Positions 52,751 to 57,221 of a DNA stretch of 64,000 bases are shown here, piece after piece; position 1 is the stretch's first letter; each line of letters begins with the position of its first letter. This DNA comes from Escherichia coli. Lineage in GTDB: Bacteria; Pseudomonadota; Gammaproteobacteria; Enterobacterales; Enterobacteriaceae. The notes beneath the pieces were generated by a model, which did not search any database, was not told where the DNA came from, and saw only the letters and a program-made list of their open reading frames with translations. Position numbers and translations under genes: made by a program. The DNA lies in the NCBI RefSeq assembly GCF_003334405.1, contig NZ_QOWM01000004.1. The stretch is one strand, 5' to 3'.

Positions 52751-53878
52751 ATGCAGTGCGCACTTTACGACGCGGGTCGCTGTCGTTCCTGTCAGTGGAT
52801 AATGCAGCCGATTCCAGAGCAACTCTCCGCTAAAACCGCCGATCTTAAAAATCTGCTCGCCGACTTTCCGGTTGAGGAATGGTGCGCGCCGGTGTCAGGC
52901 CCGGAACAAGGGTTTCGTAATAAAGCCAAAATGGTGGTGAGTGGTAGCGTTGAAAAACCACTGCTCGGTATGCTGCATCGCGATGGCACACCAGAAGACC
53001 TTTGTGACTGCCCGCTTTATCCTGCCTCATTTGCGCCCGTTTTTGCGGCGCTAAAACCGTTTATCGCCCGAGCGGGGTTAACGCCCTACAACGTGGCGCG
53101 TAAGCGTGGCGAACTGAAATACATTCTGCTGACTGAAAGCCAGAGTGATGGAGGCATGATGCTGCGCTTTGTACTGCGTTCTGATACCAAGCTGGCGCAA
53201 CTGCGTAAGGCGCTGCCGTGGTTACACGAACAACTACCGCAGCTGAAAGTTATTACCGTCAATATTCAGCCGGTACATATGGCGATTATGGAAGGGGAGA
53301 CGGAGATCTACCTGACCGAACAACAGGCACTGGCGGAGCGTTTTAATGACGTACCGCTGTGGATCCGTCCGCAAAGTTTCTTCCAGACTAATCCGGCGGT
53401 CGCCAGCCAGTTGTACGCCACCGCGCGCGACTGGGTACGACAGCTGCCGGTTAAACATATGTGGGATCTGTTCTGCGGTGTGGGGGGCTTTGGTTTACAC
53501 TGCGCGACGCCTGACATGCAGTTAACCGGGATCGAAATTGCATCAGAGGCCATTGCCTGTGCAAAGCAGTCAGCCGCTGAACTGGGCTTAACGCGTTTGC
53601 AATTTCAGGCGCTGGACTCCACTCAGTTTGCCACCGCTCAGGGGGATGTGCCGGAGCTGGTGCTGGTTAACCCGCCGCGCCGCGGCATTGGTAAACCGCT
53701 GTGTGATTATCTCTCAACGATGGCACCGCGTTTTATCATCTACTCCAGCTGTAACGCCCAAACTATGGCGAAAGATATCCGCGAACTGCCTGGGTTTCGT
53801 ATTGAACGGGTGCAGCTTTTCGATATGTTCCCGCATACCGCGCACTATGAAGTGCTGACGCTGCTGGTGAAGCAATAA
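52751..53878 (+). CDS. rlmC: 23S rRNA (uracil747-C5)-methyltransferase RlmC (RumB)
   Basis: ORF track 52751..53878, 375 aa, N-terminal Cys cluster (CxxxxxxCxxC) and SAM-MTase motifs. Confidence 0.93.
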
Positions 53879-53899
53879 AAAAGCCGCATGTGCGGCTTC
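53874..53899 (-). terminator. Stem-loop with A-tract at the rlmC stop (reads as a hairpin plus U-tract on the minus strand)
   Basis: AAAAAAGCCGCATGTGCGGCTT: hairpin preceded by A6 on the plus strand. Confidence 0.55.
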
Positions 53900-53927: not shown

Positions 53928-54027
<100 letters not shown>

Positions 54028-54076
54028 ATTTTACCTTTGTCATCAGTCTCAAGCCGCGGTTGCGGCTTTCTGAATC

Positions 54077-54808
54077 TTACTGTGGGAACCACTGGTCACT
54101 GATTTTTTGATAAGTACCGTCAGCTTTAATTGCTGCCAGCGCGTTATTCAGTTTTTCCAGCAGGGCTTTGTTATCCGGACGTACAGCGATGCCCAGGCCG
54201 GTGCCAAAATATTGCGGATCGGTCACTTTCTCAGTAGCAACACCAAGTTGTGGATTGGTTTTCAGCCATTCGTTTACCACCGCTGTGTCACCAAATACCC
54301 CATCAATACGACCATTTTTCAGATCGATAAAGGCATTCTGATAACTGTCATAAGAGACAGTTTTCACTTCCGGGTGCTGATCCTGAATATATTTCTGGTG
54401 CGTAGTACCGTTTTCCATCCCAATACGTTTGCCTTTCAGATCGGCAAACGTTTTGTAGGTATCTTTTTTGGCAATCACGACGGCTGAGTTTTCATAGTAG
54501 GGCGTGGTAAACGATACCTGTTTGCTACGCTCCGGGGTGATATCCATACCGGAGATTACGGCGTCATATTTTCTGAATTTCAGGGACGGGATCAGGCTGT
54601 CGAACGCGTGATTAGTAAAAGTACATTCTGCCTGCATTTGTTTGCACAAGGCTTTTGCCAGATCGATATCAAAGCCGACAATCTCATTATTAGCACCTAT
54701 AGATTCAAAGGGTGGATAGGTGGCTGAAACGCCAAAATTGATTTTCTCTGCGGCAGAAGCACCGAAAGTAAAGGAAGCAAGTAAAGCGGCAAGAACTAAC
54801 TTTTTCAT
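54077..54808 (-). CDS. artJ: Periplasmic arginine-binding protein ArtJ
   Basis: Known N-terminus MKKLVLAALLASFTFGASA at the ATG at 54806-54808, 243 aa; track ORF 54077..54859. Confidence 0.93.
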   Translation of the reverse strand: MKKLVLAALLASFTFGASAAEKINFGVSATYPPFESIGANNEIVGFDIDLAKALCKQMQAECTFTNHAFDSLIPSLKFRKYDAVISGMDITPERSKQVSFTTPYYENSAVVIAKKDTYKTFADLKGKRIGMENGTTHQKYIQDQHPEVKTVSYDSYQNAFIDLKNGRIDGVFGDTAVVNEWLKTNPQLGVATEKVTDPQYFGTGLGIAVRPDNKALLEKLNNALAAIKADGTYQKISDQWFPQ

Positions 54809-54921
54809 GATGGAACTCCCGTCTGTCAATCTTATGATTTTTGGCCGTGTCTGCGGCATGGGATAACAATGCCATCAAGTGAATTTATATGCAATAAACA
54901 TGATTAAATAATTTAAATGAA

Positions 54922-54957
54922 ATAAAAAAGACGGACAACTTAGTGGGTTGTCCGTCT
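54922..54957 (-). terminator. Rho-independent terminator at the end of the artPIQM transcript
   Basis: Minus strand: GACGGACAAC-CCACTAA-GTTGTCCGTC followed by TTTTTTATT. Confidence 0.7.
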
Positions 54958-54980
54958 TCATTATAAGAATTTATGCACTA

Positions 54981-55069
54981 TGTAGGCCGGATAAGGCGTC
55001 CCCGCCGCATCCGGCACAGGCACCGTGCTGATGTCTGATGCGACGCTGGCGCGTCTTATCAGACCTACA
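54981..55069. repeat. REP/BIME cluster downstream of artM
   Basis: TGTAGGCCGGATAAGGCGTCCCCGCCGCATCCGGCA and GATGCGACGCTGGCGCGTCTTATCAGACCTACA REP units. Confidence 0.8.
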
Positions 55070-55098
55070 AAACCCCCCGGCGAATGTACGCAGCCACA

Positions 55099-55767
55099 TT
55101 AATTTCGCCGTTCGAATGCCAGCGCTTTGCGCTCGATCAGACGCATCATCAGCGTCAGCAGGCCGTTAACGACCAGGTAAATAATCCCTGCCGCACCGAA
55201 CACCATTACATCGTAGGTGCGTCCGTACAACAACTGGCTGTATCCCATCACTTCCATCAGCGTAATGGTGTATGCCAGAGAGGTACTTTTGAATACCAGC
55301 ACCACTTCGTTGGAATAAGAAGAGAGCGAGCGTTTAAAGGCATACGGCAGCAGGATCGCCAGCGTATCTTTTTTGCTCATTCCCAGGGCGCTACAGGACT
55401 GCCACTGACCTTCCGGGATCGCACGAATTGCACCGTAAAACAGCTGCGTGGTATACGCCGCACTATTCAGCGACAACGCAATCAGCGCACATAACCACGG
55501 TTCTGACAACAAATGCCACAGTGCCGGATACTCCTGCAAAGTCGGAAACTGGCCCGGCCCGTAATAAATCAGGAAGATCTGCACCAGCAGCGGCGTACCG
55601 GTAAACAGCGTGATATAACCCCGCACCAGCCACACCAGCACCGGCGTTTTCAGCGTCAGGATGATGGTAAAAATCAATGCCAGAATCAGTGCCACAATCA
55701 GCGAGGCAACGGTTAGCGTCAGGCTGGTGTGTAGCCCTTTCATCAGTTCGGGTAAATACTCAAACAT
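55099..55767 (-). CDS. artM: Arginine ABC transporter permease ArtM
   Basis: ORF track 55099..55767 (-), 222 aa. Confidence 0.93.
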   Translation of the reverse strand: MFEYLPELMKGLHTSLTLTVASLIVALILALIFTIILTLKTPVLVWLVRGYITLFTGTPLLVQIFLIYYGPGQFPTLQEYPALWHLLSEPWLCALIALSLNSAAYTTQLFYGAIRAIPEGQWQSCSALGMSKKDTLAILLPYAFKRSLSSYSNEVVLVFKSTSLAYTITLMEVMGYSQLLYGRTYDVMVFGAAGIIYLVVNGLLTLMMRLIERKALAFERRN

Positions 55768-56483
55768 TAGCTGGGCCTCCGCTCAAAACGTGTCGCGCGC
55801 AGGTCAATGCGTTTGAGAATGTACTGACTGAGCAGGGTGATCACCAGGTAAATCGCCGCCGCCACAATGTACCAGGTAAATGGTTCCTGGGTACGAGTAG
55901 CGATGCTTTTTGTTTGCAGCATTAAATCATTCACACTAATCAAACTGACCAGCGCGGTATCTTTCAGCAGCACCAGCCACTGGTTACCGAGGCCAGGCAG
56001 CGCATGACGCCACATCTGCGGCATCACCAGACGGAAAAAGATAGCCGATTTCGACAGCCCCAGCGCCTGACCAGACTCCCACTGACCCACCGGCACCGCT
56101 TTCAACGCGCCCCGAAGCGTTTGCGAGGCATAGGCGGCATACAGCAGTGACAGAGCGATGACACCACAAAGGAACGGGCTAACGTCGAAGTTCTCAATGT
56201 CCATCTGCACTGGGATCTGCACGAACCCAAGATTGATAGTGAAGCCATCCGAAAGCGTCAGCAGCAGCTGCGAGGAGCCAAAATAGATAAACAGCACCAC
56301 CAGAATTTCTGGCAGGCCACGCAGAATGGTTACCAGCGCTGAACCTGCCCACGCGACAGGACGCCATTTTGCCGACTCCCATACCGCAAAGAACATCGCC
56401 AGCGCCAGCCCGACAATCAATGCACAAACGGCAAGGCCGACGGTCATCCCGGCGGCGCTTGCTAAAGGAAAAAATTCATTCAT
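55767..56483 (-). CDS. artQ: Arginine ABC transporter permease ArtQ
   Basis: ORF track 55767..56483 (-), 238 aa; stop shares a nucleotide with the artM start. Confidence 0.93.
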
Positions 56484-56489
56484 CAGGAA

Positions 56490-57221
56490 TTACTTCTGGA
56501 ACCATTTGTTGTAGATGGTTTCGTAAGTGCCATCTTTCTTCACTTTTTCCAGCGCAGTGTTGAGTTTCTGCTGCAGCTCAGTGTTGCCCTGACGTACCGC
56601 GATGCCGAGGCCAGTGCCGAAGTAATCTTTATCGGTCACTTTGTCGCCCACCGCCGCCAGTTTCGGGTTATCTTTCAGCCACTCAGTGACCACTGCGGTG
56701 TCACCGAAGACGCCGTCGATACGCCCGTTTTGCAGATCCAGTTTTGCGTTCTGGTAGCTGTCATACGGAACGGTAGTGATTTCCGGGTGCTTATCCATAA
56801 TGAATTTCTGGTGTGTCGTCCCGTTCTGTACGCCGACTTTTTTGCCTTTCAGCTGATCAACACTGGTGTATTTGCCTTGCTGACCCACAAACAGGGCAGA
56901 GTTGTCATAGTACGGGGTGGTAAACAGCACCTGCTTTTCACGCTCCGGAGTGATATCCATGCCCGCCATCACGGCTTCTACGCGACGGAATTTCAGGCTT
57001 GGGATCAGGCTGTCAAACGCCTGGTTAGAGAAAGTGCAGGTTGCATCAATCTCTTTACACAGCGCTTGTGCCAGGTCGACGTCAAAACCAACGATCTGGT
57101 TGTTTGCATCAATCGATTCAAACGGAGGATAGGAGGCTTCGGTAGCAAAACGAATGGTTTCGGCAGCTGTGGCGGAAAGACTAAAACCTGCAATTAACGC
57201 GGCAATCAGAACTTTTTTCAT
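56490..57221 (-). CDS. artI: Periplasmic arginine-binding protein ArtI
   Basis: ORF track 56490..57221 (-), 243 aa, MKKVLIAALIAGFSLSATA signal peptide; paralogue of ArtJ. Confidence 0.93.
   Translation of the reverse strand: MKKVLIAALIAGFSLSATAAETIRFATEASYPPFESIDANNQIVGFDVDLAQALCKEIDATCTFSNQAFDSLIPSLKFRRVEAVMAGMDITPEREKQVLFTTPYYDNSALFVGQQGKYTSVDQLKGKKVGVQNGTTHQKFIMDKHPEITTVPYDSYQNAKLDLQNGRIDGVFGDTAVVTEWLKDNPKLAAVGDKVTDKDYFGTGLGIAVRQGNTELQQKLNTALEKVKKDGTYETIYNKWFQK

Follow-up and report, generated by a model that had tools for sequence, protein, structure and literature searches.

The artPIQM-artJ arginine import locus of Escherichia coli: paralogous binding proteins and two ArgR-controlled transcription units

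Genes of the locus

We analyzed a stretch of 64,000 nucleotides of Escherichia coli DNA (contig NZ_QOWM01000004.1 of assembly GCF_003334405.1), hereafter referred to as the window. The segment 53000-58500 is 100% identical at the nucleotide level to the artP-artI-artQ-artM / artJ region of E. coli K-12 MG1655, on the minus strand throughout, and the RefSeq annotation contains the same five gene names, so that the names assigned in the original prediction proved to be right. The genes are as follows:

57239..57967, minus strand: artP, ABC transporter ATP-binding subunit (RefSeq; NCBIfam NF008338, 502.7 bits versus a cut-off of 369)
56490..57221, minus strand: artI, periplasmic binding protein within the operon (RefSeq; NCBIfam NF041764, 536.9 bits)
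55767..56483, minus strand: artQ, permease (RefSeq; NF008337, 468 bits versus a cut-off of 277)
55099..55767, minus strand: artM, permease (RefSeq; NF008336, 423.6 bits versus a cut-off of 248)
54077..54808, minus strand: artJ, binding protein with its own transcription unit (RefSeq; NCBIfam NF041765, 535.3 bits)

The interval under study, 54077-57221, had been delimited exactly: its ends are the final base of the stop codon of artJ and the first base of the artI ATG, both on the minus strand; artI is indeed inside artPIQM, and artI and artJ are located on either side of the permease genes artQ and artM. Spacers within artPIQM are 17, 6 and -1 bp (artM and artQ overlap by 1 nt), compared to 290 bp upstream of artJ. 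On the minus strand, this long artM-artJ spacer contains, in order, a REP pair, an intrinsic terminator, a tandem ARG-box operator and a sigma-70 promoter, followed by artJ. Gene order is conserved in a sample of 77 Enterobacteriaceae species, as are the terminator and the operator and promoter of artJ.

We are nearly certain that the segment represents the E. coli artPIQM-artJ locus for ABC import of arginine, as already described, with an ancient duplication of the binding protein and two ArgR-repressed units; no result of the analysis speaks against this. For E. coli, the order of the genes, the duplication, both promoters and the control by ArgR have been published since 1995. The K-12 "third arginine transport system" is the same locus: its genes are the same, both of its sigma-70 units are repressed by ArgR, and ARG boxes overlap the -35 element of each; it was reportedly studied by Wissenbach et al. 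in 1993 and 1995 and by Caldara et al. in 2007. The K-12 system is also covered by Torres Montaguth et al. 2019 (PMC6640053). We found no difference from the published locus, and the additions made here are the covariation of the terminator, the lineage-specific REP pair and the fixed differences between the pockets of the two paralogues. As a discovery the locus therefore carries no weight; it is useful as a positive control, in which a reading of the bare sequence led to a genuine regulatory architecture. It should be noted that the statements on promoter activity, on the affinity of ArtJ and on binding by ArgR and Lrp are from the literature, whereas locus identity, paralogy, the old age of the duplication, the anatomy of the control regions, significance and conservation were computed here.

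Control regions of artP and artJ

The following control elements were delineated around the two transcription units:

58023..58061, minus strand: artP operator, two ARG boxes 3 bp apart (4 mismatches in the distal box, 2 in the proximal box)
58011..58039, minus strand: predicted artP sigma-70 promoter (-35 TTGCAT at 58039-58034, 17-bp spacer, -10 TACTAT at 58016-58011, +1 near 58006)
54982..55068, unstranded: REP inverted pair (BIME) in the artPIQM 3' UTR (REPs at 55068-55033 and 55016-54982)
54917..54959, minus strand: artPIQM intrinsic terminator, 13-bp stem, 7-nt loop and T-run (dG -21.1 kcal/mol, z = -7.7)
54878..54916, minus strand: artJ operator, two ARG boxes 3 bp apart (5 mismatches in the distal box, 1 in the proximal box)
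54866..54894, minus strand: predicted artJ sigma-70 promoter (-35 TTGCAT at 54894-54889, extended -10 TGgCATTGT at 54874-54866)
53929..54026, unstranded: second REP inverted pair, in the artJ 3' UTR (tail motifs at 53949-53962 and 53998-54011)
53872..53899, minus strand: terminator-like hairpin and T-run for artJ (dG -13.5 kcal/mol, z = -3.95)

As an ArgR operator we took a pair of 18-bp imperfect palindromes that match WNTGAATWWWWATTCANW and have 3 bp between them. At the level of single ARG boxes (up to 3 mismatches), the 64-kb window shows no enrichment of matches (12 observed versus 8.0 expected), and the single-box search was replaced by the tandem-box test, which was decisive. The sites 54878-54916 and 58023-58061 are the sole tandem sites with a 3-bp spacer and 8 or fewer mismatches in the window; both have 6 mismatches, a score reached in none of 300 dinucleotide shuffles of the window and, when each upstream segment alone was shuffled 2000 times, by 0 and 1 shuffles. 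ARG-box-like sequences had been predicted upstream of both binding-protein genes; this holds for artJ, whereas the second site is upstream of artP, not artI (which is preceded by the 17-bp artP-artI spacer only), and beyond the interval that had been described. The artJ operator was found in 77 species with 3-8 mismatches; in 62 of these, its end is 67-70 bp away from the ATG. The artP operator was found in 73 species with 6-9 mismatches. The proximal box of both operators starts 1 nt upstream of the conserved TTGCAT and overlaps the -35 element. According to PMC6640053, ArgR footprints cover a pair of 18-bp ARG boxes with a 3-bp gap, which overlap the -35 of either promoter (citing Caldara 2007 for the artP region); arginine-dependent binding and repression by ArgR are documented there by footprinting and ChIP, by lacZ fusions and by transcription in vitro. 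The absence of single-box enrichment, and the binding of Lrp as well to the artP region (PMC6640053), would fit chance AT-rich matches or sites of another regulator; however, the restriction of canonical tandem sites to the artP and artJ promoters, their conservation in 77 species and the published footprints make this explanation scarcely credible, and we take both sites to be ArgR operators.

The predicted artJ promoter has a 17-bp spacer and an inferred +1 near 54859; the exact start sites of both units are predictions from sequence. The TTG.AT and TGGCA..GT columns of artJ are invariant or nearly so in 41 aligned species, and the -35, the extended -10 and the tandem operator upstream of artJ are kept in 77 species. 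The relative placement of promoter and ARG boxes is the same for artJ and artP, in agreement with PMC6640053. A generic sigma-70 scan called neither of the two inferred promoters, because both -35 hexamers match 3 of the 6 consensus positions. For artP, the scan proposed TTAACT, an 18-bp spacer and CATAAT at 58060-58031; this candidate was rejected, as it would place the ARG boxes over both hexamers. We preferred TTGCAT/TACTAT since it fits the published geometry, in which the ARG boxes overlap the -35 and a G+C-rich block is located at -96 to -116 (PMC6640053).

The hairpin of the artPIQM terminator (54959-54927) is G+C-rich and is followed by a T-run, 140-180 nt past the artM stop codon; a hairpin and T-run past artM were found in 73 of the 77 species. 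RNAalifold applied to the MAFFT alignment missed this terminator because of loop indels. Therefore, the stem was set by hand and its pairs were counted for covariation: all seven stem pairs tested have compensatory changes, and none of 500 shuffles equalled the observed values on four of five measures (36 of 500 did so for further pair types). A literature search for terminator or transcript data on artM-artJ returned nothing usable.

The position of artJ after a strong terminator and a REP cluster had been predicted correctly insofar as both elements are there; the REP pair was found in just 10 of the 77 species, and it is an Escherichia-biased insertion, not a conserved part of the architecture. 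Its tail motifs are on opposite strands (54982-54995 and 55055-55068, by motif search), its fold energy is -47.1 kcal/mol (z = -5.1), and it matches the REP-derived Rfam family naRNA4 with 75.5 bits (gathering score 59.5). The REP pair in the artJ 3' UTR matches Rfam ES036 with 42.2 bits (gathering score 37.6). Both Rfam matches were treated as generic REP matches and were not adopted as specific sRNA genes. The terminator-like hairpin of artJ (53872-53899) adjoins the stop codon of the convergent gene rlmC.

If artJ were the last gene of a single artPIQMJ operon, it would be transcribed solely by read-through from the artP promoter, and its AT-rich upstream region would have no promoter function. 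In all species examined, the five genes lie next to one another in the same orientation, and the generic scan called nothing upstream of artJ, as such an operon would have it. However, a strong terminator with covarying stem pairs separates artM from artJ, the -35 and extended -10 columns of artJ are nearly invariant, and the tandem operator is at a fixed distance from the ATG. A copy of artJ located away from the art cluster in Raoultella planticola has the same operator and promoter at an unchanged operator distance. Moreover, PMC6640053 reports activity of a PartJ-lacZ fusion, with a repressibility by ArgR about 9-fold higher than that of PartP, as well as transcription from PartJ in vitro. 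These observations render the single operon extremely improbable. A milder version accepts the two units and assigns a substantial share of artJ mRNA to read-through of the artM terminator, with partial co-regulation with artPIQM, including that by Lrp. Intrinsic terminators are seldom 100% efficient; nevertheless, this one has a long hairpin (13 bp, -21 kcal/mol) with a good T-run after it, and Lrp is reported to act on PartP alone, PartJ being unaffected in a promoter fusion that lacked the upstream operon (PMC6640053). We consider substantial read-through unlikely.

The prediction of two separate ArgR-controlled units is thus borne out by the covarying terminator, by the artJ promoter and operator in 77 species and by the literature: PMC6640053 and PMC2228313 describe artPIQM and artJ as two ArgR-repressed transcription units, each with its own sigma-70 promoter (PMC6640053 citing Wissenbach 1995 and Caldara 2007). 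The lack of an independent artJ promoter, which had been named as grounds for abandoning the prediction, is contradicted by the active PartJ-lacZ fusion and by promoter conservation. A literature search for links between artJ and GcvB returned nothing usable.

ArtI and ArtJ as paralogues

ArtJ and ArtI were aligned as the original prediction had proposed, and their paralogy is evident: both have 243 aa and align without gaps at 65% identity and 81% similarity (E = 2e-125). Their lengths are thus the same, whereas the sequences are not near-identical; uninterrupted peptide identity extends over 14, 12 and 11 residues in the longest cases. By inspection, the N-termini consist of MKK and a hydrophobic stretch followed by ASA|AE in ArtJ and by ATA|AE in ArtI, as in a putative Sec signal peptide; a periplasmic location of both proteins is stated in PMC6640053. 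At the DNA level, artI and artJ are 67.6% identical, with a third-codon-position identity of 45.5% and a fourfold-site identity of 45%. Recent gene conversion was discarded as an explanation, the longest exact DNA run being 14 nt. Given the 65% protein identity, the artI/artJ duplication is old.

The opposite possibility is that the duplication is recent, or that gene conversion has homogenized the copies, and that both proteins bind arginine with redundant functions. Their equal length and register, the runs of up to 14 identical residues, the common residues that anchor the amino-acid backbone of the ligand and the RefSeq names (arginine-binding for both) agree with it. However, synonymous sites are close to saturation, and long tracts of identical DNA are absent. 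Both genes are present in every full-length locus (about 73 species), and 25 fixed paralogue-specific differences between ArtI and ArtJ are kept across the family, two of them at positions contacting the ligand side chain. NCBIfam also places the proteins in separate equivalogs, and each of them clears the curated cut-off of its own equivalog alone: ArtJ scores 535.3 bits on NF041765 (cut-off 510), where ArtI reaches just 398.1, and ArtI scores 536.9 bits on NF041764 (cut-off 522), where ArtJ reaches just 385.6. Recent or redundant copies are very improbable, and an old duplication is the reading retained below.

An arrangement similar to that of art is found in argT-hisJQMP of E. coli and Salmonella, where one ABC translocator is served by a pair of paralogous periplasmic binding proteins (identity about 70%, PMC6640053) with separate promoters and different specificities. 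The distinctions are in layout and control: both binding-protein genes of argT-hisJQMP are upstream of the permease genes, whereas the two art copies flank them; the argT promoter is sigma-54/NtrC-dependent, without ArgR control, and ARG boxes are found at hisJ only, whereas both art units are controlled by ArgR.

Ligand pockets and a possible mechanism

Residues R94, D174, Y31 and F69, the counterparts of R77, D161, Y14 and F52 of LAO (numbering checked against 1LAF), occur without exception in the 81 ArtJ and 75 ArtI sequences. In LAO/HisJ-type proteins, these residues bind the alpha-carboxylate and alpha-amino groups of the ligand and sandwich its side chain (bioRxiv 10.1101/350942); thus, both paralogues have the complete anchoring and sandwich set. 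The side-chain contacts are different. ArtJ has S28 (the LAO-D11 position) and E132 (the LAO-L117 position) in 81 of 81 sequences, matching Salmonella STM4351 (PDB 2Y7I), whereas ArtI has E28 and Q132 in 75 of 75. Among solved structures, STM4351 is the nearest to both proteins (316 bits to ArtJ, 279 bits to ArtI); it is a third paralogue, specific for arginine, whose gene is located elsewhere in the genome. By analogy with E128 of Tv2483, the glutamate at the LAO-L117 position would contact the guanidinium group (bioRxiv 10.1101/350942).

The arginine-specific pocket of the STM4351/ArtJ type, with Ser and Glu at these positions, is therefore found in ArtJ and not in ArtI. Because E28/Q132 is invariant, ArtI should not be classed as an ArtJ-type arginine-specific binder, although it may bind arginine in another mode. 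The description of both proteins as arginine-binding stands for ArtJ, a high-affinity, arginine-specific binding protein for which a Kd of 0.4 uM is cited in PMC6640053. The label is less secure for ArtI, given its pocket and the disagreement between sources: its ligands are arginine and ornithine according to PMC6640053, and it binds arginine just weakly and non-specifically according to PMC2228313. The ArtI pocket differs from that of ArtJ, and its specificity is probably different or broader. The physiological substrate of ArtI may be ornithine, another cationic compound or low-affinity arginine. In the alignment, the Coxiella protein of PDB 3TQL, a distant homologue, has the ArtI-type Glu/Gln pair, which suggests that the pocket of the operon-internal ArtI is ancestral and the arginine-specific pocket of ArtJ is derived. 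A literature search for the ligand in PDB 3TQL returned nothing usable.

The following sequence of events best accounts for the locus. After an ancient duplication of the binding-protein gene, artI would have stayed inside artP-artI-artQ-artM, whereas artJ would have become an autonomous monocistronic gene just downstream. Transcription of artPIQM would start at the sigma-70 promoter with a tandem ARG operator over its -35 and end at the strong intrinsic terminator; in Escherichia, a REP pair appears to have been inserted between this terminator and the artM stop codon. Directly past the terminator, the second tandem operator would cover the -35 of the extended -10 promoter driving artJ. Arginine-loaded ArgR hexamers are expected to bind both operators and exclude RNA polymerase, so that both units would be off when arginine is plentiful; repression of artJ is reported to be the stronger, and artP to be under Lrp control as well. 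ArtI and ArtJ are thought to hand their ligands to the same ArtQMP2 translocator.

It is possible, and we propose it tentatively, that ArtI is a functionally distinct paralogue rather than a back-up arginine binder, with specificity set by a reciprocal swap at two positions of the pocket. This is a testable hypothesis; if true, the two-residue switch may account for the different ligand specificities of ArtJ and ArtI.

The art locus and its two binding-protein paralogues

The region 53000-58500 matches E. coli K-12 MG1655 at 100% identity and was found in 5426/5426 complete E. coli genomes searched (at least 80% query coverage in 5244); the architecture of the art locus is already known in detail. 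The window extends from glnQ to poxB, the art genes being flanked by ybjP upstream and by the convergent rlmC downstream. All five Art proteins exceed the curated cut-offs of their NCBIfam equivalog models, and the original prediction, 54077-57221, runs exactly from the artJ stop codon to the artI start codon.

Art genes in the RefSeq annotation
57239-57967, minus strand, artP
56490-57221, minus strand, artI
55767-56483, minus strand, artQ
55099-55767, minus strand, artM
54077-54808, minus strand, artJ

The annotated artJ start, the MKKLV ATG at 54808, is conserved and is preceded by the Shine-Dalgarno sequence GGAG. A 260-aa ORF starting at the ATG at 54859 was rejected, because the coding extension 54809-54859 is without conservation and this ATG sits at the predicted transcription start.

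ArtJ and ArtI (243 aa each) are 65% identical and 81% similar, without gaps (E = 2e-125); the longest common peptide blocks (up to 14 residues) are NGRIDGVFGDTAVV, AFDSLIPSLKFR and YFGTGLGIAVR. The paralogy and near-identical length proposed in the original prediction hold, and the degree of similarity is corrected to this protein identity. The genes are 67.6% identical overall, 45.5% at third codon positions and 45% at fourfold-degenerate sites. Since the longest exact DNA run is 14 nt, neither a recent duplication nor gene conversion is apparent from this comparison; judged from the sequences, the duplication is old. ArtJ scores 535 on the ArtJ model (cut-off 510) and 386 on the ArtI model (cut-off 522), and the pattern is reversed for ArtI, which passes only its own equivalog. 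In 66 of the 73 species compared, ArtI is the better conserved of the two; ArtJ is the faster-evolving copy.

The positions at which Salmonella LAO, a periplasmic amino-acid binding protein (sequence and numbering verified against 1LAF), contacts its ligand were transferred to ArtI and ArtJ, with residue roles taken from bioRxiv 10.1101/350942. The backbone anchors and aromatic sandwich (Y31, F69, R94, D174) are identical in 81/81 ArtJ and 75/75 ArtI sequences. The side-chain contacts show a fixed reciprocal swap, S28/E132 in ArtJ (81/81) and E28/Q132 in ArtI (75/75).

Codons of the swapped residues
54725-54727, minus strand, ArtJ S28
54413-54415, minus strand, ArtJ E132
57138-57140, minus strand, ArtI E28
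56826-56828, minus strand, ArtI Q132

The arginine-specific Salmonella protein STM4351 carries the ArtJ pair at these positions, and the Coxiella protein of PDB 3TQL carries the ArtI pair. The 25 fixed paralogue-specific differences, which include the swap, argue at the sequence level for functional divergence rather than redundancy. Published accounts of the ArtI ligand conflict: in PMC6640053 and PMC8050422 ArtI is an arginine/ornithine binder, whereas in PMC2228313 its arginine affinity, according to Wissenbach, is an order of magnitude lower than that of ArtJ and does not exceed its affinity for other amino acids. The description of both proteins as arginine-binding is sound for ArtJ and uncertain for ArtI.

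Control regions of artJ and artPIQM

Within artPIQM the genes are only 17 bp and 6 bp apart or overlap by 1 nt, so artI, 17 bp after artP, lacks a separate upstream region. The artM-artJ spacer is 290 bp long.

Elements of the control regions
55068-55033 and 55016-54982, inverted REP pair, first after the artM stop codon (REP tail-motif search)
54959-54917, minus strand, intrinsic terminator, GAAGACGGACAAC-CCACTAA-GTTGTCCGTCTTT followed by TTTATTT
54916-54878, minus strand, artJ operator, two 18-bp ARG boxes 3 bp apart
54894-54889, minus strand, predicted artJ -35 TTGCAT, within the proximal ARG box, which starts 1 nt before it
54874-54866, minus strand, predicted artJ extended -10 TGgCATTGT, 17-bp spacer from the -35
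58061-58023, minus strand, artP operator, tandem ARG site, outside 54077-57221
58039-58034, minus strand, predicted artP -35 TTGCAT, an ARG box starting 1 nt before it

The artP -10, TACTAT, lies 17 bp beyond its -35; transcription probably starts at about 54859 for artJ and about 58006 for artP. Of the two upstream regions with ARG-box-like sequences in the original prediction, that of artJ stands; the second site lies upstream of artP, not artI, and this region must be that of artP.

Single ARG-box matches are not enriched in the window (12 observed versus 8 expected). Because the canonical operator consists of two boxes 3 bp apart, we adopted a tandem test. Exactly two pairs with at most 8 total mismatches occur in the 64 kb, upstream of artJ and artP, with 6 mismatches each; the next-best site has 9. 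This value was reached in 0/300 dinucleotide-preserving shuffles of the window, and in 0/2000 and 1/2000 when only the two AT-rich upstream segments were shuffled. In tandem form, both sites thus exceed chance expectation. A lone ARG-box-like 18-mer, TTTGAAGATTAATTCAGA (9049-9066, 1 mismatch), at the ldtB 3' end lacks a second box 3 bp away and is in all likelihood a chance match.

A small conserved GCCG...CGGC hairpin (54844-54857; columns 171-184 of alignment A1) is found where the artJ mRNA is predicted to begin. Further downstream, CACAACATCA is present in Klebsiella, Enterobacter and Raoultella, not in E. coli; this sequence is probably complementary to R1, the G/U-rich region of the sRNA GcvB. 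A literature search for an artJ-GcvB link found none.

Two inverted REP pairs bracket artJ, at 54982-55068 (artPIQM 3' UTR) and 53929-54026 (artJ 3' UTR). The former matches the REP-derived Rfam family naRNA4 (75.5 bits versus a gathering score of 59.5); this match and that of the latter to ES036 were set aside as generic REP matches. A stable hairpin without a U-run directly follows the artJ stop codon (54043-54073). About 180 nt further on, a terminator-like hairpin with a T-run (53872-53899) abuts the convergent rlmC stop codon, suggesting one terminator region common to artJ and rlmC.

Conservation across Enterobacteriaceae

The comparison, with one genome per species, covered 80 loci (ArtJ 83-97% identical), all from Enterobacteriaceae. 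A tandem ARG site precedes artJ in 77/77 loci (3-8 mismatches), ending 67-70 bp from the ATG in 62, and the artP operator is nearly invariant across the loci compared. The alignment of 41 diverse spacers contains invariant columns at four places only, i.e., the ARG-box cores, TTG.AT (-35), TGGCA..GT (extended -10) and the Shine-Dalgarno sequence; flanking sequence varies freely. This anatomy and its conservation are direct observations.

The strong terminator that the original prediction placed before artJ holds up in the sequence: the stem has 13 bp (dG -21.1 kcal/mol, z = -7.7), and a hairpin with a T-run is found between artM and artJ in 73/77 loci. Its stem sequence varies between genera with pairing kept, compensatory changes being found in 7/7 tested pairs (54 cells); 85.6% of cells are paired, versus 37-61% in slid controls. 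None of 500 shuffles matched the observed covariation on 4/5 measures (36/500 for further pair types).

The REP cluster, taken originally as part of the architecture, is not conserved: REP motifs occur in only 10/77 loci (Escherichia, a few Citrobacter and Salmonella). Because it is missing from 67/77 related species, the upstream pair is a lineage-specific insertion of recent date, placed after the artM stop codon and ahead of a far older terminator. Spacers range from 151 to 423 bp (median 180, 77 loci), that of E. coli being longer because of this insertion. The 423-bp spacer, in Escherichia sp. MOD1-EC7003 (L007), has four REP motifs. In Enterobacter sp. kpr-6 (L065, 4700-5000) a G+C-rich palindromic insert, CCCTCTCCCTCAGGGAGAGGGCCGGGGTGAGGG, occupies the usual terminator position, and the 303-bp spacer yielded no hairpin with a T-run. 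Small repeat insertions thus seem to favour the artM-artJ spacer as a hotspot. It should be noted that in Kluyvera genomosp. 3 YDC799 (L037, 1900-4200), otherwise syntenic, the ArtQ match is truncated and no ArtP match was found in the locus, which could reflect disruption or a sequencing frameshift.

In Raoultella planticola ATCC 33531 (L081, 4700-5732), an artJ gene (86% identical, ArtJ-type S28/E132 pocket) directly follows an unrelated 333-aa ORF, with no other art genes within 5 kb; artPIQM is likewise absent from the 5 kb upstream. This is an artJ that has moved, or else an additional artJ module. Since it keeps a near-perfect tandem operator with 2 mismatches, whose end is 69 bp from the ATG, together with the extended -10 TGGCAT, away from the art genes, artJ with its operator behaves as a self-contained module.

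Two ArgR-controlled units and a proposed common importer

Repressor binding and promoter activity are reported in the literature. PMC6640053 (Torres Montaguth et al. 2019, drawing on Wissenbach 1995 and Caldara 2007) assigns artJ and artPIQM a sigma-70 promoter each, both ArgR-regulated, with hexameric ArgR bound at two 18-bp ARG boxes 3 bp apart that overlap the -35 of both promoters "to the same extent". According to the same paper, ArgR keeps RNA polymerase from binding PartJ in single-round in vitro transcription, repressibility is about 9-fold higher for PartJ than for PartP, and Lrp represses PartP and not PartJ. Wissenbach's data, as given in PMC2228313, indicate two operons, artPIQM and artJ. 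Thus, spacer anatomy, conservation and these published promoters support separate ArgR-controlled units, and read-through from artM with no independent artJ promoter is excluded by the PartJ activity and two-operon data in these sources.

We infer that ArtQMP2 is common to both binding proteins. The two arginine-repressed units would then supply one ABC importer with two alternative periplasmic receptors, and with a terminator ahead of artJ and a separate promoter that is more tightly repressed, the cell may be able to vary its high-affinity arginine receptor independently of the membrane complex.
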